This document shows, piece by piece, positions 14,160 through 64,000 of a stretch of DNA of 64,000 nt (its first letter is position 1; every line of letters starts with the position of its first letter). A model generated the notes under the pieces. That model made no database searches and was not told where the DNA came from. It saw only the letters and a list, made by a program, of their open reading frames with translations. Location of the stretch: the NCBI GenBank assembly GCA_964035575.1, contig OZ037846.1:744001-808000 (forward strand), in the 5' to 3' direction. The stretch is from Rhynchopus sp. YZ270_cl-10 (taxonomy: Eukaryota). The translations under genes and the position numbers were made by a program.

Positions 14160-14190
<31 letters not shown>

Positions 14191-17100
14191 ATTTATTCAC
14201 CTCCTTTTAGCGGGGTTTTATTTTGCGATAACTTCACGCATTTTTTTCCCAGGCGAGGGCTACTTAATTTGCCGAGCGAAGCGAGGCAAATTGAGTGCAC
14301 GAGCCTGGGAAAAAAATAAGTGAAGTATCGCAAAATAATCCGCTAAAAGGAGGTGAATACGTAATTTTATTTCACGGGAAATAAAGTATACGAAAGGATT
14401 TGGCACTTTTAGCGGGACTCATTTATTGTGCAATAACTAACGAGAATGTGTCCCTCCAGGTAGCTCTCATTACCCTCCCGCTAGCTTTTGCTCGCTGGGA
14501 ACCTGCAAAAAACTGGTGAATTGGGCCCATACCCTGGTATGTGGGGTGGGATACGCATTTTTGGGGTGGCAGAACCATGTGTGAGCCACAGGGTGGTGCA
14601 CGTGTGACCCCATGCAGTACCACACAACCCACGTTTTTACACACACAACAACGGCATTTTGCGTGTAGCGCGTACAGTATGTAGCCTAAAAAGCCCACAC
14701 CACGTGTACGCATAGCGCGTAGCGCAGCGTGTGGTCGGGTTTGGAAAGCTGCCTCAACGGTACACAAAGCTACATCCCGACCTCTCGCCACCTCAGTGTC
14801 CCCTCGGGTGCTAGCGGGAGGTCGGGAAATGGCTGTCGTGCAAGAGCGAGACACATTCAGAAGATCCCCGCCCATCACAGAATATCATGCCAGCCACCAC
14901 CTTCCTCACAATGAAGTAAAGGGGGTGGTGTGTCCTTCGTCTTGATAGTGAGATCGTCACGGAGATACACTATGTACGAAACGAAGTCGGCTTCCGTGGG
15001 CTTACCGTCAGGCTTGCCAATGAATTCCTTAAAAAGCGGTCCCATTCACGGACGTACGGTGTCGACAATGCTAGTCCTTCAGCAAAACCACTGTAGTGCT
15101 TGTCCATCTCCTGTCGGAGGACCGTTTGCGTCTTACATCCTTCGGCATGTTGCATGTGTCAGAAAAAAAATGGGAAAAGGGCAAAAAAAATTCGAAATTT
15201 TCAATTTTTAGGTGGGTGGTGGTGCAGGATGTACCAAAATTTAGCGTGAAGTTATCGCCAAATAAAACCCCTGTTTTAGCGTGAAAAAAACAAAAATAAA
15301 ATCCCGCTCTGAAGGAATTGCAGTGAAATAAAGTGAAAAACGCGTGAAATAAAGTTCAATGAGCGGGTTTTTAATTTGCGATAAAAAAACTGCGTGAAAT
15401 TATCATTAAAAAGAATCCCGCTAAAAGTGCCAAATCCTTCGTATACTTTATTTCCCAGTGGAATAAAATAACTATTTAAAGGGGGGACCCGTCGATTATT
15501 TACCTTTTGAAAAGGTAAATAATACACGAAAGGTAAATAATACATGGAAGGTAAATAATACAATATTTGGACTTTATTAATGCAAAAGGTAAATAATATA
15601 CGGTTTGACCTATTGCGGGTAAACGGTCCTGTTTTCGATGCACACCCACTAGACCCCCGACTCACTGCACAACAGATTTTCACGCCCCGCCCTTCCCCCT
15701 CCCCGGAACCCCTCTCGCCGTCATGTTGAACGCCTCGACCCTTGCAGAGCTGAACCACCAGTGGGATGAGGTGCGCCGTGGCCGCTGCGAGGTGGTCGTC
15801 GGCCTCGACGAGGCAAGCGTGGCGAGCCTGGACCTGGACGTTGAGAGCTTCAGCGACACGTCCAGTGCCTCAGAACTTCACCCAAAAAAAGCGGGGCGGA
15901 AAATTAATTAATTAAATGCCAATTCAAAAGGTAAATAATACACGAAAGGTAAATAATACAATGTTTGGCATTAAAAAGGTAAATAATACACGAAGGTAAA
16001 TATTACAATAGGTAAATAATCGACGGGTCCCCCCTTTATTCACCTCCTTTTAGCGGGGTTTTATTTTGCGATAACTTCACGCATTTTTTTCCCAGGCGAG
16101 GGCTACTTAATTTGCCGAGCGAAGCGAGGCAAATTGAGTGCACGAGCCTGGGAAAAAAATAAGTGAAGTATCGCAAAATAATCCGCTAAAAGGAGGTGAA
16201 TACGTAATTTTATTTCACGGGAAATAAAGTATACGAAAGGATTTGGCACTTTTAGCGTGACTTATTTATTGTGCAATAACTAACGAGTATGTGTCCTCAC
16301 AGGAAGCTCTCAGGGGAAAAAAAAAAAAAGAGCGTGAAAAAAAAAAAAAAAAAAAAAGCTCTCATTACCCTCCCGCCAGCGCTACCGGGTCCCGCGGACC
16401 CCTAGATAGGCCCGCTGAGGGGCTGGCGGGATTGAGGGGGCTAAAAAAGGCTGGACGGTCCCTCCAGCCCTACTATCTACATGTACCAAAATTTGGCGTG
16501 AAATTATCATTAAATAAAATCCCGCTAAAAGTGCCAAATCCTTCGTATACTTTATTTCCCAGGGGAATAAAAAAAAAAAGTCAGAGATCTGAATTGGCGC
16601 AAAGTGATTTAACGGGAGAACACATACCGGAGTTGAGCTTCTCGTGCATCGGAGAAGTTTGCGCCAAGGATAATGATGGGGAACGCAGCTATGAGAATGC
16701 CTGTGAACATTGCTGCTGCCCCCACGAGGTAGCCCTGTGTGGTGTGTGGTTGATGTCTAGTGAGGGTCGTTCTTGCGCAGAATATGGCCCTTAATGTTGT
16801 GTGCGGTGATTTAAAATCGGTGTTTGGGCAATTTCTAGGCCCGGGAATATGGCCCAAAGTGTGATGTGTTAGAAAAGCTGTGGGGTCATTCCTGAGATCG
16901 GAATATTGCCCAGCCATCTTCAGCCCAGAAGACTGAAGATGCTTTAAAAAAATATCATAATTACCCTAGCCATACCGGAAGCGTGACGGGAATCATATCA
17001 CCATAACCCACTGTGGTGATTGTGACGAGGCACCACCAGAAGGAGTGTGGGATGGATTTAAAGTCGTGTTGGCGGTTGGCCCCACCGTATTGGGAGTCGC

Positions 17101-20829: not shown

Positions 20830-20945
20830 ATGACTGATACAAAAAAAAAGGGGGTTTTTTTTTTTTGCTTATTTGCAGATTTTGGGCTTTTTTTAATTGT
20901 GTTGAATTTGTGTTTGTTTTGTTTGTTTGTTTTGACAAAAAATTA

Positions 20946-26718: not shown

Positions 26719-27866
26719 CTACTGCCCTCGCCCCACTCTTGCTGTTATCACAAAGTCTACACCAGCGGGCATTACAGTTTCATCCTCACGCTTTGGCTCA
26801 ACCTGAGGGAAAAGAAGGGTGTGTAAAGGGGGCTCAACAGACTGGGTAGCTGCACGGTACTCTTATTGATGTATGCTCGTTGACGTGACCCATCCCCACC
26901 TTCAAACAAACTGAGAGGTGAGAAAGGCGCCACGACGGTACTCTTATTTGCTGTCGGTCAACAACAACAAAATTTGTATAAAATTGTAGCCTACGATCAG
27001 TAGATAGCAGGATTTTTTTTCTTCACAGGATCCTTAAAAGACAGCAAATAAAAGGAAGGTACGCTTTGCAGTAGGATGTCAACACCCTTTTTCTATTTTG
27101 AAAATTTGGTTGTATTAGTGTAGCCACCTAGAGTGTGTTCTACTATTCTCTATTTTGTTTTGGGGGGAGATTTGTTATGCATTATTGTCAACAACAACAA
27201 AAAAAAAAGGGGTGGGGGAATGGTTGATTCTCTCTGTTTTGCTCTGGTTTTATGCTTTAAAAAAAGAGGGGAAACGTTCTTATTTTCTGGGAGGACAGAG
27301 AGGATAGGGAGGGTTGAAAAATCATATATTTTTTTATCGTGCAATTTTTGACTCGTGTACAAATCCTTCAGGAAGAACCAAAAATTATAATCTGGGAGCG
27401 TGTAATTATTACCAAGCGTGTAATTATGAATCGTTAGCGATTTGCGACCAAAAATGTCAACCGTGTAATTATGGGTAATAATTACACGCTCAAACCCACT
27501 TTTGGTGATTCTAAGTCGCCAAAGGGAAAGGGACTCTGCAAAATTTTTTTTCCCCCCTATGAGCATACATGTTGGTACGTACGTAAAACGCGCAAAAATA
27601 ATCAAAAAACGCGCAAAATAATAAAAAAATGTTTTTAATAAAAAACGTCACAAAGACGTTTTGCGCGCTTTTGTTACGTTTTTGTGACGTTTTTATTAAA
27701 AACATTTTTTTATTATTTTGCGCGTTTTTTGATTATTTTTGCGCGTTTTACGTACGTACCAACATGTATGTATAAGGGTTAATTTCGACGATTTGAGCCC
27801 ATTCAAAGCAAAATTTGACCCATTTGAGCAGTTCTAGGCCCCTCAAACACGTTTTTGATTATCCGC

Positions 27867-27901
<35 letters not shown>

Positions 27902-37432: not shown

Positions 37433-38231
37433 CAGGGTTTTTTCTAGGGGGGGACGGGGGGGGACGGCGTCCCCCCCCAGATTTTGGGGGGAAACGCGTC
37501 CCCCCCCGGGGGGGGACGCATTTTGACTTGGGAAAAAAAGGATATGGGGGGTGGTTGGGGTCACCCGCACAGACCCCCCATTTGGGACACCACGACGTAA
37601 CCCGCACCAGAAAAAAGGGGGAGGCAGGGAGTCGAGCGCGCGCGAAGCGCGTCTTATCCTTCCTGGCATCATTGTGAAGAGGATATAGCGAGGTGAAGTT
37701 TCAGACCGTGCCCCAATTCACTCAATCTTTGCACCATTTGACGGACCGAACAAAGAGTGAGAATAAGGGATCGGCAAAAATCAAAAAAGTAGCGTACCGT
37801 GCGCCTGCGGCGCAACTCAAAACTTATGAGCGGAATCACACAGCCCTCTACCATAGTTTGGCTGTACAAATGTTCAATTTTAGGTCACATTTTTTTGAAA
37901 TGTTGCGTACCGTGGCTTCGCCAGAAAGTTCTGATATCACGACCGCCGTTTCTTGTACTAGGGAAGGTTCCGTGGAACATGAGAAAAAGGGTTGGTTCTT
38001 GATGTACGTTACCATCCCACGTTATCACGTATTTACGTGAAATGAACGGGCTTTTTTGCGCGGAGCGCGAAATATTTTGACCCCTTTTTGGACATATCTT
38101 CACGGTTTTAGAAAAATTTTCCATGAAGATAAGCGGAAACCCTGCTTGCACCTGCGAAAAAAAAATTTTTTTGGGCGGGTTTTTTGCGTCCCCCCCCAGA
38201 TCTGAAAAAAAAAATCCTAGAAAAAACCCTG
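37433..38231. mobile_element. CAGGG-ended MITE with 6-bp TSD
   Basis: TIR CAGGGTTTTTTCTAGG; ATTGCC on both sides. Confidence 0.92.
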
Positions 38232-39713
38232 ATTGCCCCAAAAAAAAAAAGAAAAGTTTATAAGATGATCCTAAGCCTCTCGTGCTTAGTCACCTTTAAA
38301 AAAAAAACACAGTAGACGATAAGAGCACTGTCATGGTTCGTACCGCCCCTGTTCTGCCCCAAAAAAAAAAAAAAACAAACAAAAAAAAAAAAAATGATAA
38401 GGGAATTGGTCCAACTGGAACGCCCATTTATGGATAGTTGGACACAGCAGACCGATACCCTTGGTTTTTTTTCTTCTTTTTTTTTTTTTTTTTTTGGAAA
38501 AAAAAAAAAAACAAAATGATACCATGACCTCTCCACACAGACTGCTTTATTTTGAAACATTTGGTTTGTATTAGTGTAGACACCTATGATGAGCTCCACT
38601 ATTTCCTTTTCTTGATAACCCATGGGAGTAAGTGCAGCTGCCATTGAAACAGTCTTTCCACTCTTTGGTGATATTTGATAAATCATCCTATTTTTTTTTT
38701 TTTTCCAAAAAAAAAAAAAAAAAAGAAGCATGGATACGTACAGACGGCACACCTCATCCATAAGAGCGTGGCAGAGAGAGTTTTATTGAACGTTAGGAAA
38801 AAAAACAACCCTCTGGTCTGACCCTCAATATTTCTGAAAAACATTTCCCCTCCTTTTCCCCCTCCCCTCCCTCTCTCTCTCCTACACACATAAATACCCC
38901 CTCGCTACGCTTCTTTGACAGCGTGAAGGGAATCACTCCTCACAAGAGAAGAGTGTTGCAGAGAGAAAGAGAAAGAATTTTCATCATATGCAATCAATAA
39001 ATTGATAGTATATGGTGAGAGAACAACAAAAAAAAATGTTCCCATCTTTCTTGTTATGGCAAAAAATGGTTTAGGTGCTCCCCCTCTGATAATGGACCAG
39101 GAACTAATGTCTTGCGTATGTCAATGGTTAATGATACACAAGAATCAAAAAAAAAGGGGGGGGTAAATAACGCGACAAAGAAGCACTCTGTGCGATGAAG
39201 CCTAAACCTTGCGGGGCTGTTAGCCTTAGGGGGGAGGAACAAAAAAAAATATAAAATAAAAATAAAAACGGTATTGAACAAGCGGGAGGGTGAATGGTTT
39301 TAAAAAAACCCCCCCTGAGGGAACCTCTTATCTTTTTTTTTGGAAATTTACAAAAAAAAAAAAAAAAGGGGGGGGGTTTACGCATCCTCTCTCTCAACCC
39401 TAGATATCAGGGGGGATGGGGTTGAAAGAGGGAGCGGAGGGGAGGAGGAGGAGGGGGGGCAAGGCAAAATATAAAAAAAAAAAACGAAAAGTAAAACAAC
39501 AAGAAAGGGATGGAATCACGTACGTGCCATTTCAGGTGTAATGCAAAAAAAAATAACGTTTGTTTTCTTTTTTTTGTTTTGTTTTTCTTTTTTTTTTGCT
39601 TTTGTTTTTTTTGGTTTATTTAGCGAAAAAAAGGGGGTGATTTTAGTCAAAAAAAAAAAAAAAAATGGTTTCATTATCTTGTTAAACCATTGGGGTCGGT
39701 TTGTCGCGCCACA

Positions 39714-45149: not shown

Positions 45150-47318
45150 TCACGCAAAATATTGTACAATCAATGCAGTGACCCCTGCTAGGAAGCCTGC
45201 TATTCCTATGAAAAGCGTCGCATCAAAGCAGATGTCGTGCAGATGAAAGAACCCCATTTGCCAGTTTTGGGTGGAGGCAGCTACACCTTGAAGGTAGACG
45301 AGGGTGTCTGTCCAGGCCGCGAGATCGCCATGGCGTGACCCCTTGGCTTCGTCGGTTCTGCGGAACTCAAAATGGCTTGTGTAACGTTGCAGTGGGGTGT
45401 GTAGGGTACGTTTCCAGCCTCTCAGCGTTGAGGCAAAAATGATAACGCTTAATGCCGCAGCTAATGGAGGTAGGTATTTCAAATAGGTGTCCCTCGAGGT
45501 GCTATGGTGTGTCGCATATATTAACGCCCAAATCGCCCAACCTGCACCCAAAACCACGGCACCACATATGACAAACAGGACCTCCGCCCAATCCGTTGCG
45601 ATATGCAAAAAAAGCTGTCTCGCCCCTCCTGTGGTAGCGACCAACGGTCGTGCCCAGCTTTTGTAGGATGAACACGCAAAGTCTCGACGTCCTCCAGGAG
45701 TGTTTTCCAGAGGAGGTACACAACCTAACCAGATGTCATGTAATAGCAGAGAGGTCAGACGGAATTTGAGGAGAACGGTAAGCAACGATGCAGCAAAGAG
45801 TGGGAAAACCCCGAGAGAGAGAATGTATTTACGTTGGTCATGTGTTGAAAGGTCGTGGTGATTGAAGGCAACACGGATGGCGGGGTAAATAGGTGCCAAG
45901 ACTACCCCGCAAAGACATAAAACAGATAAAACCATGTTTTGTGGGGTTGACAATACGCAATGTGCCTGCCGGTACACCAACCCCCCACGGTATCCTACTA
46001 ATCGCACAAAGTTCGAGCGGAAGCTTTCCCTCTTCCAGACCATCGCTATATCGATTGTCAACGAAAAAAGCAAAAACGCTCCAACCGGGAGTACCCCATA
46101 TGGTGAATTCCATTGCGGCTCATTCCAATGCTTTGCGAGAAGGACCCAAAGGAGGAACACTGCGATGTTTAGAAGGACCCGCAGACCCGAAGCTATGGGG
46201 TGCGAGAGAATCCAGTCTGCACGGACAAGAGGGAGTGCGGAGGCTTCTTCTAAGAGGTTGTCGTCAAAATCCCTGCGGTTAAGATCAACCGGAAAGGTAA
46301 GAGAGTGTCCAAATGCAGGGCGACCAGAAGCTAGCTGTAGAGTGCTTTCTCTGGGTAGAAGGCCCCGCTCTTCATCATCCCCCTCGGTCGCGTGCTCGCT
46401 TAAATGAGAGCTGCGTTCGCTGCCGTAACTCCGTCTCGCTCCTGCAGATAGCCGTTTCTTTTCTGGGCGTATTGGAGCGGGAGAAACACTAAGAATCGGC
46501 TGAGCTGAAGAAAAACTTCCTTGTTGTGGTTGCGGGCATGTTGCCTCAAGATCTGGAGGAGGTGGTGAAATCCCAGCAGGAATCGCCCCCTCAGAGGTAG
46601 GAGTAAAATGCTGCGATCCATTCGAAATCTGAAACGATAAATTTGGCGGTGGGGTTGCGGCTGAGATAAGCCCGTTTACGTCGACGTACATAACAACCCC
46701 ATCCGCTGCGATCAAAAGCTTCGTTTTCTTTGTCCTCCCCAACAGCACCGCATCCAACAAAGGGACCGTCCCTGCACCTATCCGCATACTGCTTTTTAAG
46801 AGCTCCGCATTCGGATCGTCAATCCCTTTTACCTGAAACGCGTTTTCATTGGATGCCAGAAAAGCGACATCCCATATGAGCGACGAAAGCTTGACTTCTG
46901 CTCCATTAGCGAAAGGCGTGTCGGGGCTGCCCTCCTTCAGGATGAGCTGCATGGGGGCAGAGCGGTCGGAATCTAGCCATAGCGTAGAGAGAACGTAGGC
47001 TGCGAACGCGATGCCGTTCATTTCTGTTGCGAAGGAGAGGGAGTACACCGTGCCGGAGGCAAGACGCAGGTTGTAGTACGTCTGCGCCTTCACCCTGCGT
47101 ACCGTGAGCGGTTCTGCCAGGTCGTATCGGTAGTGCCGGATGCTCAGATAGTTGTCTGTCAGCTTGTCGTCGCCGACGCCGAGAAACACCCTATAATCCT
47201 CGTGTTCACGAACGTAGGCTACCAAGACGTCCCCGACGCCAAGTGCACCCCCCTCAGCATCAAATACACTCACCTCAGCATCAAACAGAATGGTAATAGC
47301 ATCCTCATCCCCGGACAT
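45150..47318 (-). CDS. Multipass membrane protein (722 aa): PH/EVH1-like + degenerate FKBP-like N-terminus, ~7 TM C-terminus
   Basis: Long intronless ORF starting at MSGDEDA. Soluble N-terminal half, then a Pro/Ser linker, then several hydrophobic segments. Domain calls are by eye. Confidence 0.8.
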   Translation of the reverse strand: MSGDEDAITILFDAEVSVFDAEGGALGVGDVLVAYVREHEDYRVFLGVGDDKLTDNYLSIRHYRYDLAEPLTVRRVKAQTYYNLRLASGTVYSLSFATEMNGIAFAAYVLSTLWLDSDRSAPMQLILKEGSPDTPFANGAEVKLSSLIWDVAFLASNENAFQVKGIDDPNAELLKSSMRIGAGTVPLLDAVLLGRTKKTKLLIAADGVVMYVDVNGLISAATPPPNLSFQISNGSQHFTPTSEGAIPAGISPPPPDLEATCPQPQQGSFSSAQPILSVSPAPIRPEKKRLSAGARRSYGSERSSHLSEHATEGDDEERGLLPRESTLQLASGRPAFGHSLTFPVDLNRRDFDDNLLEEASALPLVRADWILSHPIASGLRVLLNIAVFLLWVLLAKHWNEPQWNSPYGVLPVGAFLLFSLTIDIAMVWKRESFRSNFVRLVGYRGGLVYRQAHCVLSTPQNMVLSVLCLCGVVLAPIYPAIRVAFNHHDLSTHDQRKYILSLGVFPLFAASLLTVLLKFRLTSLLLHDIWLGCVPPLENTPGGRRDFACSSYKSWARPLVATTGGARQLFLHIATDWAEVLFVICGAVVLGAGWAIWALIYATHHSTSRDTYLKYLPPLAAALSVIIFASTLRGWKRTLHTPLQRYTSHFEFRRTDEAKGSRHGDLAAWTDTLVYLQGVAASTQNWQMGFFHLHDICFDATLFIGIAGFLAGVTALIVQYFA

Positions 47319-47753
47319 AGTGTGGCGCGCCTTTTGTGTTGTTCTGTGAAAAGGGAGGGGGGCTTGTTGGACGGGGTGGTTGAAAGTTTTTTCAGGAATG
47401 GCAAAAAAGCCACTCCCAAAAAAGAGAGAAACGGCACCACTGATATGACGTCGATCTGGTCCTCGTGGAGCTACCAGAGCATTAAGAAGCGAGGAAAGTG
47501 CCCAAGTAAAATAAAAGAAGAAGAAAAAAATCACTTTGTCTAGCCATTATATGGGTGTAAGCTTGTTCAGAGACGTGTGTGTTTGGTGTATCGGGTACTT
47601 TGCGCAGTTAATAAAAAACTCAAAACATAAAGGTATCGCTGCTGTAACGAACGACACAAGAAAAGAAAAGGGTGAGCGCAAAATCCTCGTGAACAAAACG
47701 GGTTTGCAGTTTGAAGCAAATGCCAGATGTAAATCTGAGCAAACACAACAGTG

Positions 47754-49484
47754 CTACTTCACGGAACACATCTGAGAGCAACACACAACACTGCACGTCC
47801 CAGAAGGAACTGCGTGTGCTGGTGTGCCAACCCCTCCCGCAGCTGTCCATGCCATAGCAACGTCAAGGTCAGACTGCTCACCACGCAGGTACCCACGCAC
47901 GGCAATGTTGTACTCCTCCCAATGCTTCTTCCCACCTATCATGTACATCCACTCGTCAACTGCTTCTGCTGCATCACTCAGCTGAGCCATCACTTCTGCC
48001 ACAACCTGTGCCTCACAATCAGAGGCAACCTCCACCTTGCACGGAAGCAGACGCAGCTGGTGTTCGCACTCAGCATCGCTGAAGCACATCCTGTTGCACA
48101 CCACATCACACCCCAGCATACGCCCCACACGTTCCAGTCCGTTCACATCACGCACAAGCTCCCCCACCATGCTGAACCGACGCATCACCTCACAACCCAT
48201 GTCACCACGCAGCACCTTCCCAGTCGCAACACCAGCATTCACCTTCTCACAAAAGCTGCTCGCACCCTTCAGAAGCAGGCTTGCTGCGTGCAGTGCAGAT
48301 GTGGCATGTGTCGCACACTGCTTCGAGGCGTTGAACGAACAGTGGATCCTGTCCCCGATGAACACGTCCACCATCCCACGTCTTGTCTCTGTTGCCTGCA
48401 GGGTCTTCAGGAGGAGAGTGGTGAAGAAGGAGGAGTAGGTCGCACTGTCCTTCTCCAGCAAATGCAGGGTGTCCTTCACGTTCAGTGTCAGCAGGGTTGC
48501 CTTTCCCGAGGACAGACCCAGTGGCAAGCACACTGGCAAGTTCTCATTTCTCAAATGTGAGGACTCTGTGGATGTGTCTGCTGTCTCTGTCAGGTCTCGC
48601 CCTTCGCTCTCTGAGTCCACCTTCTCCACCCCATCCTGAAACGGCAGACACGTCTTCGGGAGGTACGCTTTGTACATGCGCAGGTTCTTCTCCAGTCTCC
48701 ACAGGGCAGCAGTCATCCCCTCAGGCAGGTCACCCCCATGCACGTCCAGCATCTCCGCCACCTGCTCCACGTCGTACCCCGCAAGAAGCGACGCAATCTC
48801 CTGCACAACGCTGATCGTGCGCCTCATTGACTCCTGCTCCTTCAGCACGTTCTGCGCAAACCTGCGTGTCACGAAGAAGTCGATCAGGAAGACAAAAAGA
48901 CTGGAAATCAGTTCAAGTTGGGGAAATGGTGTCTTGCAGGGTAAGAACTCGCAGTCCGTCTTTTCTACAATCAACGCTCTCCTGCTGTGTTCACCTTCGT
49001 ACGGCAACAACCCAGGAAGGTCAAACAAGCCAAATCTGAAGGATTCCTCACATCCCATCACACACAGCCACACCATTGTCGCACCCACGAACCATGTACT
49101 GTACCGTGATGCGACTTGCATCACAAGCAACATGTCCACAACCACGATCAGAATTGGCCAGGCAAAGTAAGCATAAGTGCGTGCGTGCAAATCCCATATG
49201 AGGATGCCAATGCCAAACGAGTACATATACCCCACCACAAACGTGGTGTGCAGTTGCTGCTTGCAGAGCACCTTCACCATGGCAACAAACCCAGCTGCAG
49301 CAATTATGCAACCCCCGAGTTTGAAAACAATCTTACTCTGCCCGTCCTTCTTCTGCTGCATCAACAAAACAACCAGAGCCGAGACTGCTGAGGCCACACA
49401 GAACACAAACATGATGGTGCGCTTCTTAACCTCAGCAGCACTGAGAGACCCGTCAATGGTCAGTGCGCTGTTCAGGCATCGCAT
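47754..49484 (-). CDS. Membrane protein with degenerate class III nucleotidyl cyclase domain (576 aa)
   Basis: About 6 TM segments, then ATLLTLNVKD, GMVDVFIGDRIHCSFNA, GVATGKVLRGDMG and FSMVGELV. Confidence 0.85.
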   Translation of the reverse strand: MRCLNSALTIDGSLSAAEVKKRTIMFVFCVASAVSALVVLLMQQKKDGQSKIVFKLGGCIIAAAGFVAMVKVLCKQQLHTTFVVGYMYSFGIGILIWDLHARTYAYFAWPILIVVVDMLLVMQVASRYSTWFVGATMVWLCVMGCEESFRFGLFDLPGLLPYEGEHSRRALIVEKTDCEFLPCKTPFPQLELISSLFVFLIDFFVTRRFAQNVLKEQESMRRTISVVQEIASLLAGYDVEQVAEMLDVHGGDLPEGMTAALWRLEKNLRMYKAYLPKTCLPFQDGVEKVDSESEGRDLTETADTSTESSHLRNENLPVCLPLGLSSGKATLLTLNVKDTLHLLEKDSATYSSFFTTLLLKTLQATETRRGMVDVFIGDRIHCSFNASKQCATHATSALHAASLLLKGASSFCEKVNAGVATGKVLRGDMGCEVMRRFSMVGELVRDVNGLERVGRMLGCDVVCNRMCFSDAECEHQLRLLPCKVEVASDCEAQVVAEVMAQLSDAAEAVDEWMYMIGGKKHWEEYNIAVRGYLRGEQSDLDVAMAWTAAGGVGTPAHAVPSGTCSVVCCSQMCSVK

Positions 49485-50318
49485 CGTTGGGCTTTTGATC
49501 CTCACAAACCTTTGCTGTGTGTGGAGCAGGGGTGTGTGGATGTGTGTTGTGTGCTGGTGGGTGGGGGGTCTCTTTAGGATAAAATATGGGGGGAAAGGTC
49601 TTTTTTGGTTAATAGCGCCGAAAAAACGGCAGCGAGGTATGTGGTCATGAGGGCGAGACTGGGGAAACACAACACAAAAATACTGATGAAGGTGGTGAGA
49701 TTTCCCCGTAACGTCCTCAACCAACCTTGCCGAAGCAAGTGGTAAGCAATAACAACAAAAAGGGCACGTAGTAATAGATAAATGGTACGCGCAAAAAAAA
49801 TATAGCGAAAAAGGGGGAGGGGAAAAGACTTTCTTATTCGCGACATATGTTATCCTAGAGACCCCCCTGGCGTAGCAAAGCTACTTAAACAAGTTTACAG
49901 TATGTGAGGGTCCAGCGTTGGGAGATGGAAATGACCACCACAATTGAGGTACTTTGCACAGAACATAACCTCACACGTCAGAGAGTGCGCATTTTACTGA
50001 ACGATGGTTTTCGTGATGATGTGGATGAGTAAATAGTGTGTGTAGCAGGGGAGAGGATGGCAGGGACGACAGTACAATTGCTGTACCTATTTTTTGTGCA
50101 CAATGTGGCAAAGTAGTGAAAATATGGAACACGGCGAAAATGCAAACAACAGATCACGATCCGACATCAACTCTGATAAATGCTATGACGGCGGTGTTTG
50201 TGTGTACTGAAGCGAATAGGCAGACGTGCAGAGTGTGTGCGTGACATCAGCAATCACTAACCTCTACGACTGGGATGGGGTTCTATATTCGCCAGGTGTA
50301 ACGACTTTGTGCCCAATT

Positions 50319-51201
50319 CCTTAACACTCGGTGTTAAGGTCTTTAAGGTTGCTTCAACACCACACACCCACCCTCCCCTTAACACCCCCCCCCCCGGGGT
50401 GGGTTTCGGCCATTTTTTTTGAGGTCTCTAAACGTCCAAAGAGGTCAAAAAAGTGGATTCTTGGGAAGATAGGAGGTTTTTTTTAGGGTTTGCAAATGAG
50501 AAAGACCTCCAAACCCTGACAGACCCTGAAACCAGGGTGTCGCGAGTACCCCTTTTTTACACGTGTTTCTTAAGGCTTCTACAGGGTTATACAGGCAAAA
50601 CAGGCGTTTTGGCCAAAAACCCGGTTTTTCAGGCAGGTAACCGGGTTTGAGGCTTGGGAAACGTGCCAGAGCGGTGTGAGAACCATGCGTGGGGGTTTGT
50701 AACCACTCGTTGCGTTGGTTGCGTTGCCTTCGCTACGTTGCGTTCGTTACGTACACACCGGTTACGTTGTGTTGCATGCGTTGCGTTCGTTGTGTAGAGA
50801 TCGTTTTATACAGAGTGCAACGAACAGAGCGGTTGCGTTGCGTTGGTTGTGTTCGGTTGGTTACGTTCGTTGCGTTCCGATCGTTACGTACACATCGGTT
50901 GCGTTGCGTTGCATGGGTTGCGTTCGTTGTGTAGAGACCGATATATACAGATCGCAACGTACGCATAGGTTGCGTTGTGTTGCACGCGTTGCATTCGTTG
51001 CATACAGAACGCAACGTACACACAGGTTGCGTTGCATCCGTTGCGTTGGTTGTGTTTGTTTCGTTACGTTCTCATCGTCACGTACACATCGGTTGCGTTG
51101 CGTTGCATGCGTTGGTTGCATACGGATCGTAACGTATAGAGCGGATCCGTTTCGTTGTGTTCGGTTGCGTTTATCAACCACACCAGCCAGGAGTGTTAAG
51201 G
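50319..51201. mobile_element. TIR element with 3-bp ATT TSD
   Basis: TIR CCTTAACACTC; ATT on both sides; internal degenerate (GTTGC)n at about 50705-51170. Confidence 0.78.
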
Positions 51202-51436: not shown

Positions 51437-54325
51437 TCACAAAAGAACGTGTTTCGATGAAAGCGGCCCATTTGTCACAAAAGAACGCGTTTCGATGAAG
51501 GCGGTCCATTTTTCACAAAAGAACGCGTTTCGATGGAAGCGGTCCGTTTTTCACAAAAGAACGCGTTTCGATGGAAGCGGTCCGTTTTTCACAAAAGAAC
51601 GCGTTTCGATGAAAGCGGTCCGTTTTTCGCAAAAGAACGCGTTTCGATGAAAGCGGTCCGTTTTTCGCAAAAGAACGCGTTTCGATGGAAGCGGTCCGTT
51701 TTTCGCAAAAGAACGCGTTTCGATGGAAGCGGTCCGTTTCTCACAAAAGAACGCGTTTCGATGAAAGCGGTCCGTTTTTCGCAAAAGAACGCGTTTCGAT
51801 GAAAGCGGTCCGTTTTTCGCAAAAGAACGCGTTTCGATGAAAGCGGTCCGTTTTTCGCAAAAGAACGCGTTTCGATGAAAGCGGTCCGTTATTCGCAAAA
51901 GAACGCGTTTCGATGAAAGCGGTCCGTTATTCGCAAAAGAACGCGTTGCGATGAAAGCGGTCCGTTTTTCGCAAAAGAACGCGTTGCGATGGAAGCGGTC
52001 CGTTTTTCGCAAAAGAACGCGTTTCGATGGAAGCGGTCCGTTTTTCACAAAAGAACGCGTTTCGATGAAAGCGGTCCGTTTTTCACAAAAGAACGCGTTT
52101 CGATGGAAGCTGTCCGTTTTTCACAAAAGAACGCGTTTCGATGAAAGCGGTCCGTTTTTCGCAAAAGAACGCGTTGCGATGGAAGCGGTCCGTTTTTCAC
52201 AAAAGAACGCGTTTCGATGGAAGCGGTCCGTTTTTCACAAAAGAACGCGTTTCGATGGAAGCGGTCCGTTTTTCGCAAAAGAACGCGTTGCGATGAAAGC
52301 GCTCCGTTTTTCACAAAAGAACGCGTTTCGATGAAAGCGGTCCGTTTTTCACAAAAGAACGCGTTTCGATGAAAGCGGTCCGTTTCTCACAAAAGAACGC
52401 GTTTCGATGAGAGCGGTCCGTTTTTCACAAAAGAACGCGTTTCGATGGAAGCTGTCCGTTTTTCACAAAAGAACGCGTTTCGATGGAAGCGGTCCGTTTC
52501 TCACAAAAGAACGCGTTTCGATGAGAGCGGTCCGTTTTTCACAAAAGAACGCGTTTCGATGGAAGCGGTCCGTTATTCGCAAAAGAACGCGTTTCGATGA
52601 AAGCGGTCCGTTATTCGCAAAAGAACGCGTTTCGATGGAAGCGGTCCGTTTTTCGCAAAAGAACGCGTTTCGATGAAAGCGGTCCGTTTTTCACAAAAGA
52701 ACGCGTTTCGATGAAAGCGGTCCGTTTCTCACAAAAGAACGCGTTTCGATGAAAGCGGTCCGTTTTTCACAAAAGAACGCGTTTCGATGAAAGCGGTCCG
52801 TTTTTCACAAAAGAACGCGTTTCGATGAAAGCGGTCCGTTTTTCACAAAAGAACGCGTTTCGATGAAAGCGGTCCGTTTTTCGCAAAAGAACGCGTTGCG
52901 ATGGAAGCGGTCCGTTTTTCACAAAAGAACGCGTTTCGATGGAAGCGGTCCGTTTTTCACAAAAGAACGCGTTTCGATGGAAGCGGTCCGTTTTTCGCAA
53001 AAGAACGCGTTGCGATGAAAGCGCTCCGTTTTTCACAAAAGAACGCGTTTCGATGAAAGCGGTCCGTTTTTCACAAAAGAACGCGTTTCGATGAAAGCTG
53101 TCCGTTTCTCACAAAAGAACGCGTTTCGATGAGAGCGGTCCGTTTCTCACAAAAGAACGCGTTTCGATGAGAGCGGTCCGTTTTTCACAAAAGAACGCGT
53201 TTCGATGGAAGCGGTCCGTTTCTCACAAAAGAACGCGTTTCGATGAGAGCGGTCCGTTTTTCACAAAAGAACGCGTTTCGATGGAAGCGGTCCGTTATTC
53301 GCAAAAGAACGCGTTTCGATGAAAGCGGTCCGTTATTCGCAAAAGAACGCGTTTCGATGGAAGCGGTCCGTTTTTCGCAAAAGAACGCGTTTCGATGAAA
53401 GCGGTCCGTTTTTCACAAAAGAACGCGTTTCGATGAAAGCGGTCCGTTTCTCACAAAAGAACGCGTTTCGATGAGAGCGGTCCGTTTTTCACAAAAGAAC
53501 GCGTTTCGATGAAAGCGGTCCGTTTTTCACAAAAGAACGCGTTTCGATGAAAGCGGTCCGTTTCTCACAAAAGAACGCGTTTCGATGAGAGCGGTCCGTT
53601 TTTCACAAAAGAACGCGTTTCGATGAAGGCGGTCCGTTTTGCGCAAAAGAACGCGTTTCGATGAAAGAGGTCCGTTTTTCACAAAAGAACGCGTTTCGAT
53701 GGAAGCGGTCCGTTTTTCACAAAAGAACGCGTTTCGATGAAAGCGGTCCGTTTTTCACAAAAGAACGCGTTTCGATGGAAGCGGTCCGTTTTTCACAAAA
53801 GAACGCGTTTCGATGGAAGCGGTCCGTTTTTCGCAAAAGAACGCGTTGCGATGGAAGCGGTCCGTTATTCGCAAAAGAACGCGTTTCGATGAAAGCGGTC
53901 CGTTTTACGCAAAAGAACGCGTTTCGATGGAAGCGGTCCGTTTTTCGCAAAAGAACGCGTTGCGATGAAAGCGCTCCGTTTTTCACAAAAGAACGCGTTT
54001 CGATGAAAGCGGTCCGTTTTTCACAAAAGAACGCGTTTCGATGAAAGCGGTCCGTTTCTCACAAAAGAACGCGTTTCGATGAGAGCGGTCCGTTTTTCAC
54101 AAAAGAACGCGTTTCGATGGAAGCTGTCCGTTTTTCACAAAAGAACGCGTTTCGATGGAAGCGGTCCGTTTCTCACAAAAGAACGCGTTTCGATGAGAGC
54201 GGTCCGTTTTTCACAAAAGAACGCGTTTCGATGGAAGCTGTCCGTTTTTCACAAAAGAACGCGTTTCGATGGAAGCGGTCCGTTATTCGCAAAAGAACGC
54301 GTTTCGATGAAAGCGGTCCGTTATT
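51437..54325. repeat. 38-bp satellite, ~76 units
   Basis: Unit C(A/G)CAAAAGAACGCGTTTCGATG(A/G)AAGCGGTCCGTTTTT, head-to-tail with no spacers. Confidence 0.98.
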
Positions 54326-54900
54326 CCTTAACACTCTGTGTTAAGGTTTTTAAGGTTGCTTTTGTGGCGTACCCTGTACCCTAACCCCCCCCGACGGGGT
54401 ACCCCAAAAAATGACATTTCTCGCAGAGGCGCCAAAGTGTAAGATTTTTTCGGCATTGGAAAGATTGGGCCAAAAATCCAGCCCTTACCAAATTCTAGAA
54501 AACACTTGTGTTTTCTAGTTTTTAACCCCCTGCGCGTGGTTTAAAAAACTCCCCCTAAGTCACCCCCCCCCTCCCTGGTGGATCCGACCAAAATCGACCA
54601 AAAATCGGTTTTTTTTTCAGGGTGTAGAAGCTTCGCCCAGCTCAAAAAACTGTTTCTTTGGAAAGATCGGACACTTTTTGGGGGGTGTATAGGCTCAGCG
54701 AAGCGTTAAACCGTTAGAGACCCTGACACCAGGGTGTCACGAGTACCCCTTTTATACACGTGTTTCTTAAGGCTTCTACAGGGTTCTACAGGCAAAACAG
54801 GCGTTTTGGCCAAAAACCCCGTTTTTCAGGCAGGTAAACGTGTTTGCGGCTTGGGAAACGTGCCAGCGCGGTGTGAGAACCATGCATGGACCACACACGG
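54326..54900. mobile_element. Relative of the 50319 element; right end not found
   Basis: Same left end (CCTTAACACTC.GTGTTAAGGT.TTTAAGGTTGCTT) after ATT; 54717-54887 matches 50520-50688. Confidence 0.7.
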
Positions 54901-57175: not shown

Positions 57176-58796
57176 GGGAAGAGCATTCGTAGGGTAGATG
57201 TGTGGTACACCTCCGTCCGCACATGTATAGTTTGCTTTAATTGATTAATGTACAGTCAGATGCTCCTAATCTACTTGTGTTTAACGACTGTTGACCTCCA
57301 AAAGAGCGGTAAATACATTGTGCTGTGGTACAGAGAGTTTAGGGAGTGGCGGCATAAAAAGGGGATAACTAGGTGCATAAAGAAGCGTCCGCTGGGTAAA
57401 ATGTGGAGTACGCCTCTCTGGGCGTACTTCGAGTGCGGAGGGACCTGGGGCTTCAATAGCGAGAGAGAATTATGCATCAGGGATTTCTACGGTGTGAGAA
57501 GTGTGGTAGAGATGTGGAAAAATGGGTAGGGGGAACGCTGAACGAGCGAACGAAAGGCTTTTGATTGGGTAACATGTGGGGAAAGACAGCAGAAAAGCAA
57601 CAAAATACCCGTTGTAAATAGGGGGACATGAATAACACGCTTGTTGTCAGGGGCTAGCAGCGCGACGTAAGTCGTACTGCAGCCTATGACACAAGATTAA
57701 ACACAGAACATAATAATATTAATCAACAACAACTCAGTCACGACTAACTACCGTTACGGAGGTACTCCTCAAGCGGGCCAGGCAGGAAACTCTCGCTGAC
57801 GAGGTACTTCAGGGCGGTCGCCGGCTCTCGCATGAGGAGGGTATGGAGGTCCGGGAGGCTTTCGCTACACGTTTGTCGGCAGGAGAAGAACAGGTGCTTC
57901 AGGGTGCAGGGCTTGTCGCATCGCAGGCATGTGGCAGTGTTCGACGAGGTGCGGAAGTCGAACGTTAGCTGGTTGCTGCCAGCTCGGAGGCTGCGGATGG
58001 TGGTTTCCCCCCTGCGGGTGAGGTCCGTGCAGTGGACGGGAGGTTGCAGCACCGCTACGTCCGCTCCGGCCTTCCTGGCGTACACCGTGTTCGTGCCGGG
58101 CTGCTCGACGGAAGGGGTGTTCGCCAGGTGACGTCTCGCACATGATCTGGCGGCAGAGAAGGACAGGCCAGGGCTCTGCACCATCTTGGTGCCTTCTGCG
58201 GCCGCAGCGTCAGCAGCATCATTGCCCAGGACCTGCACATGCGAGGGGACGTAGTGCAGTATTAGGTTTATGTTGTTGCCGGCAAGCCGGTGTAGTCCTT
58301 TCCAGAGTTTGTGTTCGAAGTCCTCTCTGGCCTTCTTGGGACCGCTCTCTAGCGCACGCAGGGACGATTGCGAGTCTGTGAGGATGGCGCAGGTGGCCCC
58401 AGGGGTTGCTTTGTCAAAGAGAAGGTCAATGGAGTGGCCTATGGCGATCATTTCGGCTTGAAAGCTGCTTGCGCCGGTGCCGGCCCCGTAGGAGAAGGAG
58501 CAGTTGGGTTCTCGCATCTCGGGGAGCTTGTACAGCACTACCCCAGCACCCCCGCTTTTGCCCTGGACAGAGCCGTCGGTGTAGGCGTGCCATTCGCAGG
58601 GGGGAAGGCGTTGGAGGGCCTCCTCTGTGAGGAGCAGGAATTTTTCGTCATCTGGCTCAGGGTCGGAGCGGCGTATCCCAGGTATCGTGGCGGTGATACT
58701 TAGGCGGGGCAGTACGTCACTCCAATACCACGGGTCTACAGGCAGGTGACGCTGCATATCTGCCATATGCACCCCAGGTCTGCGGAACTCCTTGTG

Positions 58797-59204
58797 CAGT
58801 GCTACCAACGCGACAAGAGATTCTAGTCGCGCGACAAAGTGCCACTTGTCGCGCTGTCGCGCCCAAAAAAAATTTTTTTTTTCGACATCACAAAAATTTT
58901 CACCAAAAAAAAAAATTTTTTTTTTTTTTGGGTGTGGGCGATTTTGGAAAAAAAAATCCAAAAAAAAAAATCCAGAAAAAACCATCGCAGACGGTACAGT
59001 AGCGACGTAAGCAAAAGCCATCATTTTTTGACCAAAATTTTGCTAAGTACCCGGAAAAAACGCGATTTTTCCTAACAAAAAAAAAAAAAAAAGTGTCTCA
59101 AAATGGAAAAAAAAATTTTTCGATTTTTGCGACAACTCATTTTGTCGCGCTGTCGCGGGTGGTTTGTCGCGTGTCGCGCGCGACTTGTCGCGTTGGTAGC
59201 ACTG
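58797..59204. mobile_element. MITE with 7-bp TSD inside the LINE
   Basis: 21-bp TIR CAGTGCTACCAACGCGACAAG; CCTTGTG on both sides. Confidence 0.93.
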
Positions 59205-59491
59205 CCTTGTGTGCCTCGGAGGAGAGTCGCTGGGCGGCGGAGAGCCAGTTGTTGAGCGTGAGGGAGGCGGAGGTGTAGCCGCAGGCCGCTTTCCCTGGCG
59301 TGTCGGTGTGACGCCGAAACAACTCGAACGCAGTTACGGCGTCCAATCGCATCAGGTCCACTATCGGGGTCAGGCGTGCCTCCCACAGCAATTTGGCGCG
59401 AGACGTAGGCAAAGGACATCCGGTGATGATACGCGCCGCGGCGTTGTGTTCGGCCTCCAGCTTGTCCATCAGGTGTGTTGACAGCTGTGGA

Positions 59492-59883
59492 CAAGGCGAC
59501 CACTCGACCACGTGGTCGACCATGAAAATGACCTCCTCGACCATGGTCGACCACGTGGTCGACCACGTGGTCGACCATGTGGTCGACCATGGGGTCGACC
59601 ATGAGGTCGACCACCGACGTGTTTTGGTGGTCATACTGGGCCAAAACCGCCAGAAACTGCACCCACGAGGTGTTTTGAGGTCCTACAACGGGTTCCACGG
59701 CTATATGGGTGTCGACCACCCAAGGTCGACCCAAAAAAAAATTTTGGCAAAGACAAAATCCGATTTTTAACCTGAAAAAAAAAAAAAAAAAAGTGTTTTT
59801 TTTTTTCACAAAAAAAAATTTTTTTTTTTTTTCGTGGTCGACCACGCCAAAATGGTCGACCACGTGGTCGAGTGGTCGCCTTG
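59492..59883. mobile_element. CAAGG-ended MITE, copy 1
   Basis: 31-bp TIR CAAGGCGACCACTCGACCACGTGGTCGACCA; left flank CTGTGGA, right flank CTTATAC. Confidence 0.93.
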
Positions 59884-61057
59884 CTTATACAGGCTACTGT
59901 AGACCAGAATCCTTGTCATTTTTCTTGAAATTTCTGAAAAAAATCAGGGAAAAATTCAAAATTTCAGAATTTTGTGACTTTTTGGGTATTATTTTTGATT
60001 TTTTGGCAATTTTTCAAAAAAAAACGGGAAAACGAGAAAAAAAACCGGACCCTAACCCACAGAATGAGCTCAATAGGCGAGCGAAGCGAGCCTATTGGGC
60101 GACTTTTGACCGTATTTTGGTTGAAAATTTGAGTTGAAAATTTTTTTCATAATTTGCCCAATCTGAGGTTTTCATTGGATTCTTTGGGCCATTTTATGAG
60201 GTACCACGGCAAATTTTGGGCGAAAAAAAAAAATTTTTTTTGGTCAAAAATCGCCTTGTATAGCCACTGTATTGGTGTAGGCTTGTGCACAGAAGTGTGT
60301 TTTGTGTAACCACAGATGGTCAAAACACCCGATTTTTGCGTTTTTTCGCATTTTTTGGTGCCCAAAAACCCAGGTCAGGGGTCGAAATTTTGCCGAAAAA
60401 AAAAATTTTTTTTTTGAGATTTTTCGATTTTTTGCTAAGGTGCTGGCCCATACAAACTGTACAGGGTGGATATTTTATACACAAAATGGCCAGGAAATAA
60501 ATATGTGATGCTCAAAACATCAAAATTTTTCGTTTTTTTGCATTTTTGGGCCAATCTGAGCCCAAAAAAAATTTTTTTTTCAGCTGAAATTTGTCTTTGC
60601 CAAAAAAAAAATTTTGGTCACTTTATCTCCCTCCTGCTCACTTTATCTCCCTGCTGCTCACTTTATCTCCCTCCTGCTCACTTTATCTCCCTCCTGCTCA
60701 CTTTATCTCCCTCCTGCTCACTTTATCTCCCTGGGGAGATAAAGTGAGCAGGAGGGAGATAAAGTGGGTAAATTTTACACCCTATAGGGAATAATTTTTG
60801 CGTAAGGGAGGGTATAAAGTGTACCCTGAGGGATACAATAGTTATTTATTCTACCCCCGGGGAGTCACTTTATCTCCCCCGAGGGAGCCAATATTTCCCC
60901 GAGGGCCCGTAGGGCCCGAGGGGAAATATTGGCTCCCGAGGGGAGATAAAGTGAACTCACCGGGGGTAAATATGTAATTTTGTATCCCAAAGGGTGCACT
61001 TTTGACCTCCCGAAGCAAAAAAAATGGCTTATAAGGCCTATGTAGGGTCTCTTATAC
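59884..61057 (+). mobile_element. Circularly permuted Crypton-like element
   Basis: B' (60816-60838) directly abuts the left end and palindrome (60841-60980), followed by B (60980-61002). The segment starts and ends with CTTATAC. There is a 20-bp tandem repeat at 60619-60732. Confidence 0.65.
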
Positions 61058-61461
61058 CAAGGCGACCACTCGACCACGTGGTCGACCATGAAAATGACCT
61101 CCTCGACCATGGTCGACCACGTGGTCGACCACGTGGTCGACCATGTGGTCGACCATGGGGTCGACCATGAGGTCGACCACCGACGTGTTTTGGTGGTCAT
61201 ACTGGGCCAAAACCGCCAGAAACTGCACCCACGAGGTGTTTTGAGGTCCTACAACGGGTTCCACGGCTATATGGGTGTCGACCACCCAAGGTCGACCCAA
61301 AAAAAAATTTTGGCAAAGACAAAATCCGATTTTTAACCTGAAAAAAAAAAAAAAAAAAGTGTTTTTTTTTTTCACAAAAAAAAAATTTTTTTTTTTTTCG
61401 TGGTCGACCACGTGGTCGACCACGCCAAAATGGTCGACCACGTGGTCGAGTGGTCGCCTTG
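61058..61461. mobile_element. CAAGG-ended MITE, copy 2 (direct orientation)
   Basis: Near-identical to 59492-59883 apart from one extra 12-bp unit; left flank CTTATAC, right flank CTGTGGA. Confidence 0.93.
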
Positions 61462-64000
61462 CTGTGGACCGTATATGCCAAGAGCATAGCGGATCAGGGG
61501 AAGTACGTATGTGAGATAGGTGGTGCGGAGGGTGTGTGTGTTAGCTCCCCACGTGGTTCCAGACAACATCTTCATCAGACCGAGCCTTTTTTGCACCCTG
61601 GTGATGACTGCGGTGGTGTGTGCCTCCATCGTCAAGGACGGATCCAGCGTCAATCCCAGGTATTTGGGTGTGGCGGAGTAGGGCACCCGAATACCGTTCC
61701 TCAGCCAAAGTTCTGTGTCGGCCGCTAACGGGTACTTGTTGAGGACGTTTCTTGTGCCGAAGAAGGTGAAGACGGTCTTTGTGCTGGAGAGGCGCATTCC
61801 GAGTGGCTCCATCGCCGCTGTGACACGGTTGATGACCGCTTGCGCCAATTCTTGCACTTCCCCTAATGTTTCCCCTTGCACGGTGACTGCCATGTCGTCG
61901 GCGAAGAATGTGGGATATGTTGCACTGAGGTCGTCGAGCGCTTCCGCAACTTCGTCCATAGCAGCGAGGAAAAGGAGGGGTGACAGTACTGTACCCTGCG
62001 GTACTCCAGCTCTCATCACGTACTGCGCACTCTTTGCTCCATCCACTGAAACACAGGCGGAGCGGTCACTGGTGAAGGCTTCAATCCAGTTGAGGTAGCG
62101 TGGTGGCAGGTGCTGCTTGTGCTTCAGCGCCTGGAGTATGCGCTTGCGAGACACAGTGTCGAACGCCTTTTCTACGTCGAAGAAGAGTGCGATGGTGGGG
62201 CGGTTCTTCCCCGCATTCACCCGCTGCATGAGCGCCGCGAGCTGGTCTATCGTGGAGAGACGACGGCGGAAACCTGCTTGTGTGCGGTGTGGGCCCCTGT
62301 ACTGCGGCAGGTCCGGACTGTCTTGCATCTGGGTGATGCGGCACTTGACCATCTTCTCCAAGAGTTTGCAGACGTTGCTCGTAAGAGAGATGGGGCGGTA
62401 CGACGCGGGGATGCTGGCGTCCTTCCCGTTCTTAGCGATGGGCACGATGTTGCTCTGCAGCCACGATGTAGGGAGTTCACCTTTGCACCAGGATAAGTTG
62501 AGGACGTGGAGTAAGGCGTCTCGTCCTTTGGGCCCAAGATGCAGCAAGAGCTCGTTGTGCATCTCGTCCAGCCCAGGTGCTTTGCCCAGCTTCAGCGAGC
62601 TCATCGCGTAATCGAGCTCCGGCAAGGTGAAGGGAGCTTCGCTTGCCGCTCCGGTGTAGCCCTCGCTCTGTGTGTTGTTGCGCCTAGCAGTACGCTGCGG
62701 GTTGGCGAGAGAAGGGGGCGTGCCGTCTCCACTCACTGCGGCGAAGTAGCGGGCCAGGGTGTTCGCTTTTTCCTGCGGTGTGTTCGTCAGAGGGCCCTCC
62801 GGGGTAGCGACTGCTTTGGTGATGGGTTTCACCCGGTCACCACTGAGCTCCTTCAACCTCCGGAAAGTGCTGCTGAGAGGTGGTGGTGTGGCGGCGTTGC
62901 AGCTACGCACCCATGCCTGCTGCTTCGCATCCATGATGGCACAGGAGGTGGCGACCTTCAGCTCTTTCAGCTTTTCGGCTTGGACGTCGCGTTCCGTCTC
63001 GTCCGCGGAGAGAAGTAGTTCCGTCACTGCGTTGCGTTCTTGCAGCAATTCATGGACCTGAGGAGTGAACCACGACTTCCTGACCCTTGGTGTGGAGGTG
63101 TGGTGGGAGAGTGGGATGTGTTTTTCTGCGATGTTCTTGCACAATCCCGTGAACCTGTTCACCGCATCTACACCACCCCAGTTGTGGGCCTTGGGGGCGT
63201 AACGCTCCAGCTCTGCCGTGTACGCCTCCCAATCCGCACGTGACCAGCACCATCTCAGCAGGTGTTCGGGCACTGTCGCGTCTTCGTCGCCTCCGTTCAC
63301 TTCCTCCCCTTCCGTCGGAGGTTGCACTGTGACTAGGATGGGGAGGTGGTCGGAGCCTCGTGCGCAAAGTGTGGTCCATGTGGCTTCTACGTTCCTGTGT
63401 ACCAAGGTGATGTCCGGTGAGGAGAAGACTGTTCCGGAGAAGCGCGTGACTGTGTTGGGGCAGTTGAGCACCTGCATGGCGTTGCGCAGCGACCACTGGT
63501 GTAGCTGTGACCCTTTGGCATCTGGCTTCGCTTGGAGGTCCCACGCAGGGTGGTGGACGTTGAAGTCACCGAGGATGATGGAGTCTTCGTCGGAGGGGAG
63601 GTCATCTGCAGAGAAGTCGTCCACACGCAGGTCATCAGCGCTGCTGCCTACACCTCCAGGTCGGTACAGGTTCGTCACCGTGTACTCCCGATGCTCCGTC
63701 GTCACCCTCACGTCAAGACGCTCCGTCACACTTGGCTCCCCGCTGGCCCAGGTGAGGGAGGCTTGGTGGCTTGTGTGCACCAGCGTGGCTATGCCGCCTC
63801 CGGAGTACAGGCTGCCATTGGGGGTGCGGCGTTGCGTGCGCTTCCGGAGGAAGGGGGTGTAGCCCGGGAACGCGGGCAGTGCTGTCTGCGCCTCCTTCAG
63901 CTCCTGCAGAGCCACCACATCGAAGTGCTCCGAGTTCAGTAACTCCTGCAGCTCCTCTTCCCGTTGCTCGGTCAGCCCGTTGCAGTTGAAGCTGATCAGC

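Follow-up and report, generated by a model that had tools for sequence, protein, structure and literature searches.

How did a transposable element come to lie in rotated order, with its two ends joined, between two copies of a different element? The locus that raises this question lies in a stretch of 64,000 nucleotides of Rhynchopus sp. YZ270_cl-10 (contig OZ037846.1, positions 744,001 to 808,000), which was analysed at its full length and is called here the window. A non-coding element of 1167 bp, designated X, stands between two MITEs (miniature inverted-repeat transposable elements), M1 and M2, in the order CTGTGGA-M1-CTTATAC-X-CTTATAC-M2-CTGTGGA. The outer target duplication occupies 59485..59491, within the sequence of a long interspersed nuclear element (LINE), and 61462..61468; the inner one occupies 59884..59890, in X sequence, and 61051..61057, and at both of these positions contigs of sequencing runs carry an empty site. 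An initial annotation had described this nested order of two 7-bp duplications, two MITEs and X, and each part was found in the place assigned to it. The probability that two exact 7-mer pairs arise by chance is, by a rough estimate, about 4^-14, or 4e-9. The nested structure, with the MITEs outside X, is real. X has no second copy within the window, and the composite is a single instance. We show below that X is permuted and joined at its own ends, and we propose, with a rough probability of 0.45, that the composite was cut from a head-to-tail dimer of a MITE-bearing X.

Six sequencing runs from three studies contain the stretch, all of them as Logan contigs, and the contigs of four (X1, X2, X3 and X5, not X4 and X6) were aligned to 59213-61100. 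Runs X1 and X2 come from one study, possibly the source of the assembly, and the best run contains 0.88 of the sampled words. In such contigs rare branches are lost and a filter drops records, and depth is not copy number.

The composite sits in a young LINE on the minus strand (57744..64000), which we take to be ingi-like; one frame of it contains the domains of an endonuclease (Pfam PF03372/PF14529), a reverse transcriptase (PF00078) and an RNase H (PF00075). The LINE is interrupted by two inserts, the composite and a second MITE, T (58797..59204), with a terminal inverted repeat (TIR) starting CAGTG and a 7-bp duplication, CCTTGTG. When both inserts were excised and one duplicate was kept for each, the LINE frame was open for 1287 codons. 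Keeping both outer CTGTGGA copies led to a stop at codon 966, and keeping neither led to one at codon 849; the same test restricted to the 93 codons between the composite and MITE T did not discriminate. LINE contigs in all four runs match the locus without a single difference as far as 59492, where they diverge rather than enter the MITE. This departure suggests the behaviour expected of an empty site. Because of the frame test and of the contigs that leave the locus at 59492, we regard the outer 7-mer as a true and recent target duplication. MITE T lies 280 bp from the composite, and the LINE is otherwise intact.

M1 (59492..59883, plus strand) is a non-coding MITE of 392 bp with an array of 12-bp internal repeats, and M2 (61058..61461, plus strand) has 404 bp and the orientation of M1. 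The TIRs are perfect over 32 bp and begin with CAAGG. With this TIR and the two 7-bp duplications, M has both of the traits that we take to mark MITEs of the P superfamily, namely a target duplication of 7-8 bp and a TIR starting with CA. The first 327 bp of M1 are identical to M2, including runs of A18 and T11. The two copies differ only near the right end, by one 12-bp unit and by a shift of an A/T boundary (A9T14 versus A10T13), and apart from this one homopolymer boundary there are zero substitutions. A shortened version of M, consisting of both ends and 20 other letters, was seen in contigs on 59492-59883 in runs X1, X2 and X3. M also has an internal stretch of 45 bp in common with MITE T (84%).

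That X is circularly permuted was claimed in the initial annotation, and the contigs bear this out: in two of the four runs, X1 and X2, contigs in the rotated order cross an empty CTTATAC site. They pass from 61050 directly to 59884, a step back of 1167 with seven letters fitting both sides, and the X1 contig that carries this joint (388 bp) has 0 differences. Right-end X contigs end their match at 60838 and continue into two different A-rich flanks; left-end contigs begin at 60837, in the one case with a readable flank after an A run. Because CTTATAC contigs free of the MITE exist and the ends enter other A-rich flanks, the other X copies are linear in the rotated order. Thus, the X of the composite is circularly permuted, with its own ends joined, and its right-hand part (rotated positions 220-1167) is placed first, at 59891..60838 on the plus strand. 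A second joint, 61011 to 60507, was also found in X1 and X2, and corresponds in rotated coordinates to a forward deletion (173 to 836). Both joints contradict a reading of X as two unrelated fragments, which we rejected. Neither was seen in X3 or X5, and in those runs 60914-61039 was uncovered, which is not taken as absence of X, since the filter drops records. The contigs with the second joint represent a subfamily of X in these two runs that is diverged and, through an internal deletion, about 0.5 kb long.

The two ends of X meet in an AA that is common to both, at 60837..60838, as delimited by the contig ends. The initial annotation was right about the fusion and placed it at 60840/60841; the join lies two bases further left. 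The register recurs elsewhere in the window, where two elements of a sister family, Y, are joined head to tail in the chromosome on the plus strand: GGAATAAAA|TAACTATTTA at the Y join is in identical register to GGGATACAA|TAGTTATTTA at the join of X. Here too the likeness had been recognised before, with the Y join put at 15470/15471, whereas its site is 15468/15469 (15468..15469). Among the three copies of Y in the window this is the one head-to-tail join.

The region of the end join, 60770-61110, was compared in runs X1 and X2. Depth at 60830-60841 (423.6 and 809.2, respectively) is wholly accounted for by the two end contigs, and depth at 61034-61045 (755.2 and 2523.5) by the empty-site contigs. 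In X1, the depth of about 755 for X against about 99 at one MITE flank hints at several X copies, although these are not copy numbers. None of the composite's own junctions was met in the Logan contigs, and in neither of the two runs was the end join of X bridged by a contig, nor was X|M2, rare branches being apt to drop out of contigs. Therefore, it is the assembly alone that supplies the composite locus as a whole. The lack of a bridging contig also speaks against X arrays in abundance and against amplification of an X with the MITE; single copies remain compatible with the data.

In rotated order, X begins with a long hairpin, A-A' (about 130 bp), followed by a block B, the interior, a set of 20-bp repeats and a block B'. 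The hairpin forms the left end (60839..60974, plus strand), has its centre near 60910 and is 85% self-complementary over 129 columns. Block B is internal (60980..61021, plus strand) and B', its inverted copy, forms the right end (60795..60838, plus strand), after which other copies enter other flanks. B' had been described as a right-end block of 60816-60838; its position at the end holds, and its span is longer, beginning at about 60795. Between these ends lie the subterminal 20-bp repeats (60615..60766), in which about 5.8 forward copies precede an inverted stretch and a 15-bp motif is common to the hairpin arm, a small internal hairpin with a GCGAAGC-type centre (60068..60098), and an interior (60107..60600) that contig depth indicates to be common to a very abundant and more diverged repeat. 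Summed contig depth at 60107-60600 is mostly 2e4-4e5 in X1-X3, as against about 1e3 for the X ends, depth again not being copy number. Two X segments, 60107-60600 and 60859-60903, are common to far more abundant repeat families in the aligned runs.

The end join B'-A has its reverse complement in the A'-B stretch, and the joined region consequently folds into a single stem of 227 bases at -90.2 kcal/mol, compared with -30.4 +/- 3.4 kcal/mol for 60 shuffles. A hairpin and a split inverted repeat, together with an internal reverse complement of the join, were also found in three other families of the window, Y (three copies), Z and W; these further elements lie at 14186-16572, 27900-28451, 20942-21912 and 30246-31327, and their hairpin centres are GNA-type loops. 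Across X, Y, Z and W the repeats measure 38-60 bp and the hairpins 130-190 bp. The plus-strand flanks are A-rich for X, Y and Z and not so for W, and the ends of X have only AA in common, inside A-rich flanks (three flanks were long enough to read). At 15477-16036, 8 bp within the left end of the second Y copy, lies a MITE whose TIRs are of the GGGGGGACCC type and whose target duplication is TA, and a near-perfect foldback of 207 bp (27564-27770) adjoins the third.

By whichever route the composite arose, the join is a record of X's own end-joining, as a circle or in tandem, and a free circle is not required. We propose that a MITE would first have entered one X copy at CTTATAC. The machinery of X would then have doubled the MITE-bearing copy head to tail, either through rolling-circle copying or by inserting again at the A-rich end of X itself. 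Finally, the MITE transposase would have taken the outer ends of both MITEs and excised the unit MITE-X(right)-X(left)-MITE, which would have landed in the LINE with duplication of CTGTGGA. This route would need three steps, each of a known kind, and no rare strike on a small and transient target. Consistent with it are the nested 7-bp duplications and the open LINE frame, the rotated order of the other X copies in two of four runs and the entry of X ends into other A-rich flanks, the chromosomal head-to-tail Y join in X-join register, and the scarcity of differences between M1 and M2, which lack substitutions beyond the one homopolymer boundary. Tandem insertions have been reported for Helitron-type elements (PMC5148889). 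Several points weigh against the proposal. The Y tandem joins unlike elements, of 1283 bp and about 544 bp, and so demonstrates insertion targeted to an end but not the doubling of one copy. The two differences between M1 and M2 fall at slippage-prone places some 15 bp from each other, though longer homopolymers match, a pattern that would also fit two different parent copies. In addition, that the join and the X|M2 junction are unbridged in both runs faintly suggests that neither X arrays nor a MITE-bearing X lineage are abundant.

The initial annotation had favoured a trapped free circle. We do not adopt that view, as a composite hopping out of a tandem dimer yields the identical sequence without extra steps and a chromosomal Y join is present in the window. 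Capture of a circle, its two routes taken together, is in our estimate only slightly less probable than the dimer. Classical replicative cointegration is not usual for a cut-and-paste MITE, so that the circle routes would be recombination, gap repair or sister-chromatid hybrid-end insertion. In the first of the two routes, which we consider unlikely, a free MITE-bearing X circle recombines with a MITE already in the LINE, or serves as the template for gap repair of it. Nested duplications would result just as well, M1 and M2 would each be a chimera of two parent copies, one reciprocal to the other, and a crossover within the first 327 bp predicts what is seen, both M1/M2 differences lying at the right end, which slightly favours this route. 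It also agrees with the join being unbridged in both runs, and so with there being no abundant X arrays, and circles with joined ends are on record for elements of the Helitron2 type (PMC5148889), while for Cryptons they have been proposed (PMC3212892). However, four steps are required (two independent MITE insertions, circularisation, and ectopic recombination over 0.4 kb), and neither a LINE|MITE nor an X|MITE precursor junction was found among the loose contig ends listed, in which a mixed consensus is not resolvable. No within-MITE substitution occurs among the matches listed, so that the MITE family shows too little variation to reveal chimerism. The second route, which seems very unlikely, is a hybrid-end insertion into a naked X circle at CTTATAC, in which the left end of the LINE MITE on one sister chromatid acts with the right end on the other. 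Such an event, which would correspond in eukaryotes to a cointegrate, would open the circle and duplicate the MITE, so that both duplications would follow from one earlier MITE insertion, and it needs no MITE-bearing X, none of which was observed in the contigs. P hybrid element insertion and Ac/Ds sister chromatid transposition, which use the termini of two elements and have chromosomal targets, are described (PMC3744419), but we found no literature precedent for insertion into a circle. Moreover, although three steps would be enough, a transient circle of 1.2 kb would be a very small target, and the MITEs are predicted to be identical, whereas M1 and M2 differ at two spots.

It is also rather doubtful, in our estimate, that a MITE fused the chromosome with a free circle of a hairpin-ended class, the junction of the circle being written in advance inside the element as its reverse complement. 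If so, the locus would be a sequence fossil of the circle, and the layout that four of its families have in common would suggest that ends are joined on a substrate that is single-stranded and folded. An artefact of assembly is very improbable; in that case a MITE-bearing X that exists elsewhere, as a circle or in tandem, would have been drawn into the LINE sequence via the common MITE. A repeat graph would give exactly this geometry, the composite junctions are unseen in contigs, and the best run falls short of the full set of sampled words. Yet the window resolves tandem arrays of 2.9 kb and 6.3 kb, a protein that it encodes has been recorded from a contig with a length of 1,557,957 bp, which points to long reads, and M1 and M2 are uncollapsed; the end join and the X|MITE form would, in any case, still have to exist somewhere. 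We rejected two independent MITE insertions at one base of adjacent X copies, as the identical site and orientation would have to occur twice. The remaining weight falls to mixed routes, for example a hop out of an extrachromosomal concatemer.

A further matter is the class of elements to which X belongs. Movement of X by a tyrosine recombinase had been assumed in the initial annotation. No recombinase was detected with Pfam in 55 frames of the window (a chosen subset of the listed frames), of which 40, chosen in and around the elements, likewise gave no RepHel or transposase; with no enzyme gene in the scanned frames and a minus-strand layout such as is described for Helitron2, that assumption is unproven. 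The enzyme may be a tyrosine recombinase (Crypton-like) or of the rolling-circle kind (Helitron2-like), and X is assigned to neither Crypton nor Helitron2. A scan of viral contigs for an autonomous partner of X by end pattern returned 16 matches, none of them a hairpin (-6 to -14 kcal/mol), and a further scan returned 0. Of five matches in metagenome contigs none had the X layout: three resemble bacterial terminators, one is a repeat-rich stem, and one is a near-perfect foldback at a contig end.

The analogy with Helitron2 is the sole parallel to the hairpin layout of X that we found in the literature. On its minus strand X has a 5' inverted repeat with its partner just upstream of a 3' hairpin, as in Helitron2 and Helentron elements (PMC3627910, PMC4067079), and like them it has a T-run target, no target duplication and internal tandem repeats (PMC3627910, PMC4067079, PMC5148889). 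Joined ends and tandem copies are also reported there (PMC5148889). In contrast, the repeats of X-type elements measure 38-60 bp as against 8-15 bp, and their hairpins 130-190 bp as against palindromes of 5-10 bp (PMC3627910, PMC4067079). A 5' hairpin appears weak or absent in X-type elements, in which the 5' terminal folds of six ends range from 0 to -3.5 kcal/mol at positions that are not common, and RepHel was not found in the scanned frames. Some non-autonomous families labelled as Crypton in Repbase or Dfam begin with a long hairpin. X appears to resemble Cryptons in that it lacks both a pair of TIRs at its two ends and a true target duplication, and in a short end homology (PMC3212892), and a circular intermediate has been proposed for them (PMC3212892). 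The ends of Cryptons carry short direct repeats or none (PMC3212892, PMC13465315, PMC8969392), given as 4-6 bp where present (PMC3212892), in which X may differ, and neither a long hairpin nor an internal copy of the join is described in the available part of PMC3212892. Some CryptonV elements target microsatellites, and the accessible parts of these sources add nothing further on ends (PMC8869645, PMC5753468). Replitrons, with short direct terminal repeats, are a poorer fit (PMC10288648). X differs from DIRS elements in having neither a reverse transcriptase nor long terminal repeats, and in that its internal copy adjoins one end. In DIRS elements, an internal complementary region stands in relation to the termini. 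The likeness to X thus lies in an internal stretch complementary to the joined termini, a region that is named in PMC13465315.

The window as a whole is repeat-rich: many small elements and long tandem arrays surround frames of the ion channel, MORN, TRAPP and phosphatase kinds. At 45150-49880 there are two long frames that look intronless and have no Pfam match, the second of them a member of a large gene family (398 matches among 7995 candidates scored). An array of 6.3 kb (362-6671) is built of variable units of 33-36 bp, and each strand of it has open frames of about 2000 codons. Perfect arrays of the 7-bp unit CAGTACA occupy 11136-11729 and 28805-29957, the latter between arrays of the 10-bp unit AAAATAGCAG. 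A 2.9-kb array of a 38-bp unit (51437-54326) has a repeated stretch of 180 bp on both sides (50511-50692 and 54708-54889), and an element of 755 bp is present as two inverted copies, 95% alike (31946-32700 and 37507-38250).

What the locus has kept is the exact point at which a class of non-autonomous elements is joined end to end; it supplies primers and a predicted junction for the detection of free circles. It indicates that two small MITEs are able to move, or to capture, another element in its joined form, a route by which rotated repeats that confuse annotation may be produced. If one of the circle routes is true, this would be direct evidence, of a rare kind, that a circular intermediate exists and that a eukaryotic MITE can bring about a cointegrate-like fusion; should the dimer route be true, an ordinary composite hop has occurred, and the locus is a warning that rotated order alone proves no circle. 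Searching by title and the start of the abstract, with most subscription papers outside the coverage, we found no match in the literature for a MITE-flanked, permuted and end-joined element in a eukaryote.

Bacterial composite transposons and cointegrates formed by insertion sequences are flanked by directly repeated elements. The composite resembles them in its two copies of the same orientation, with one duplication outside and a second inside, and differs in that a eukaryotic, non-autonomous, cut-and-paste MITE is involved, the passenger is an end-joined transposon, and there is one instance. With alternative transposition (P, Ac/Ds sister chromatid and reversed-ends) it has in common that the ends of two copies act as a unit and that target duplications are split (PMC3744419). 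The products of alternative transposition are, however, deletions, duplications, inversions, permutations and translocations of flanking DNA (PMC3744419), and we found no capture of an unrelated, end-joined element by it in the literature. In permuted duplications that arise via circular DNA, the rotated order is likewise taken as the mark of a circular donor, whereas the breakpoints described there carry microhomology or small indels (PMC7450558). Here, a circle or dimer was opened by a MITE and closed at the transposon's own ends, and a tandem dimer is therefore possible as well. Composites, alternative transposition, circles with joined ends, tandem copies and rotated order are each known, and it is from these ingredients that the locus is made.

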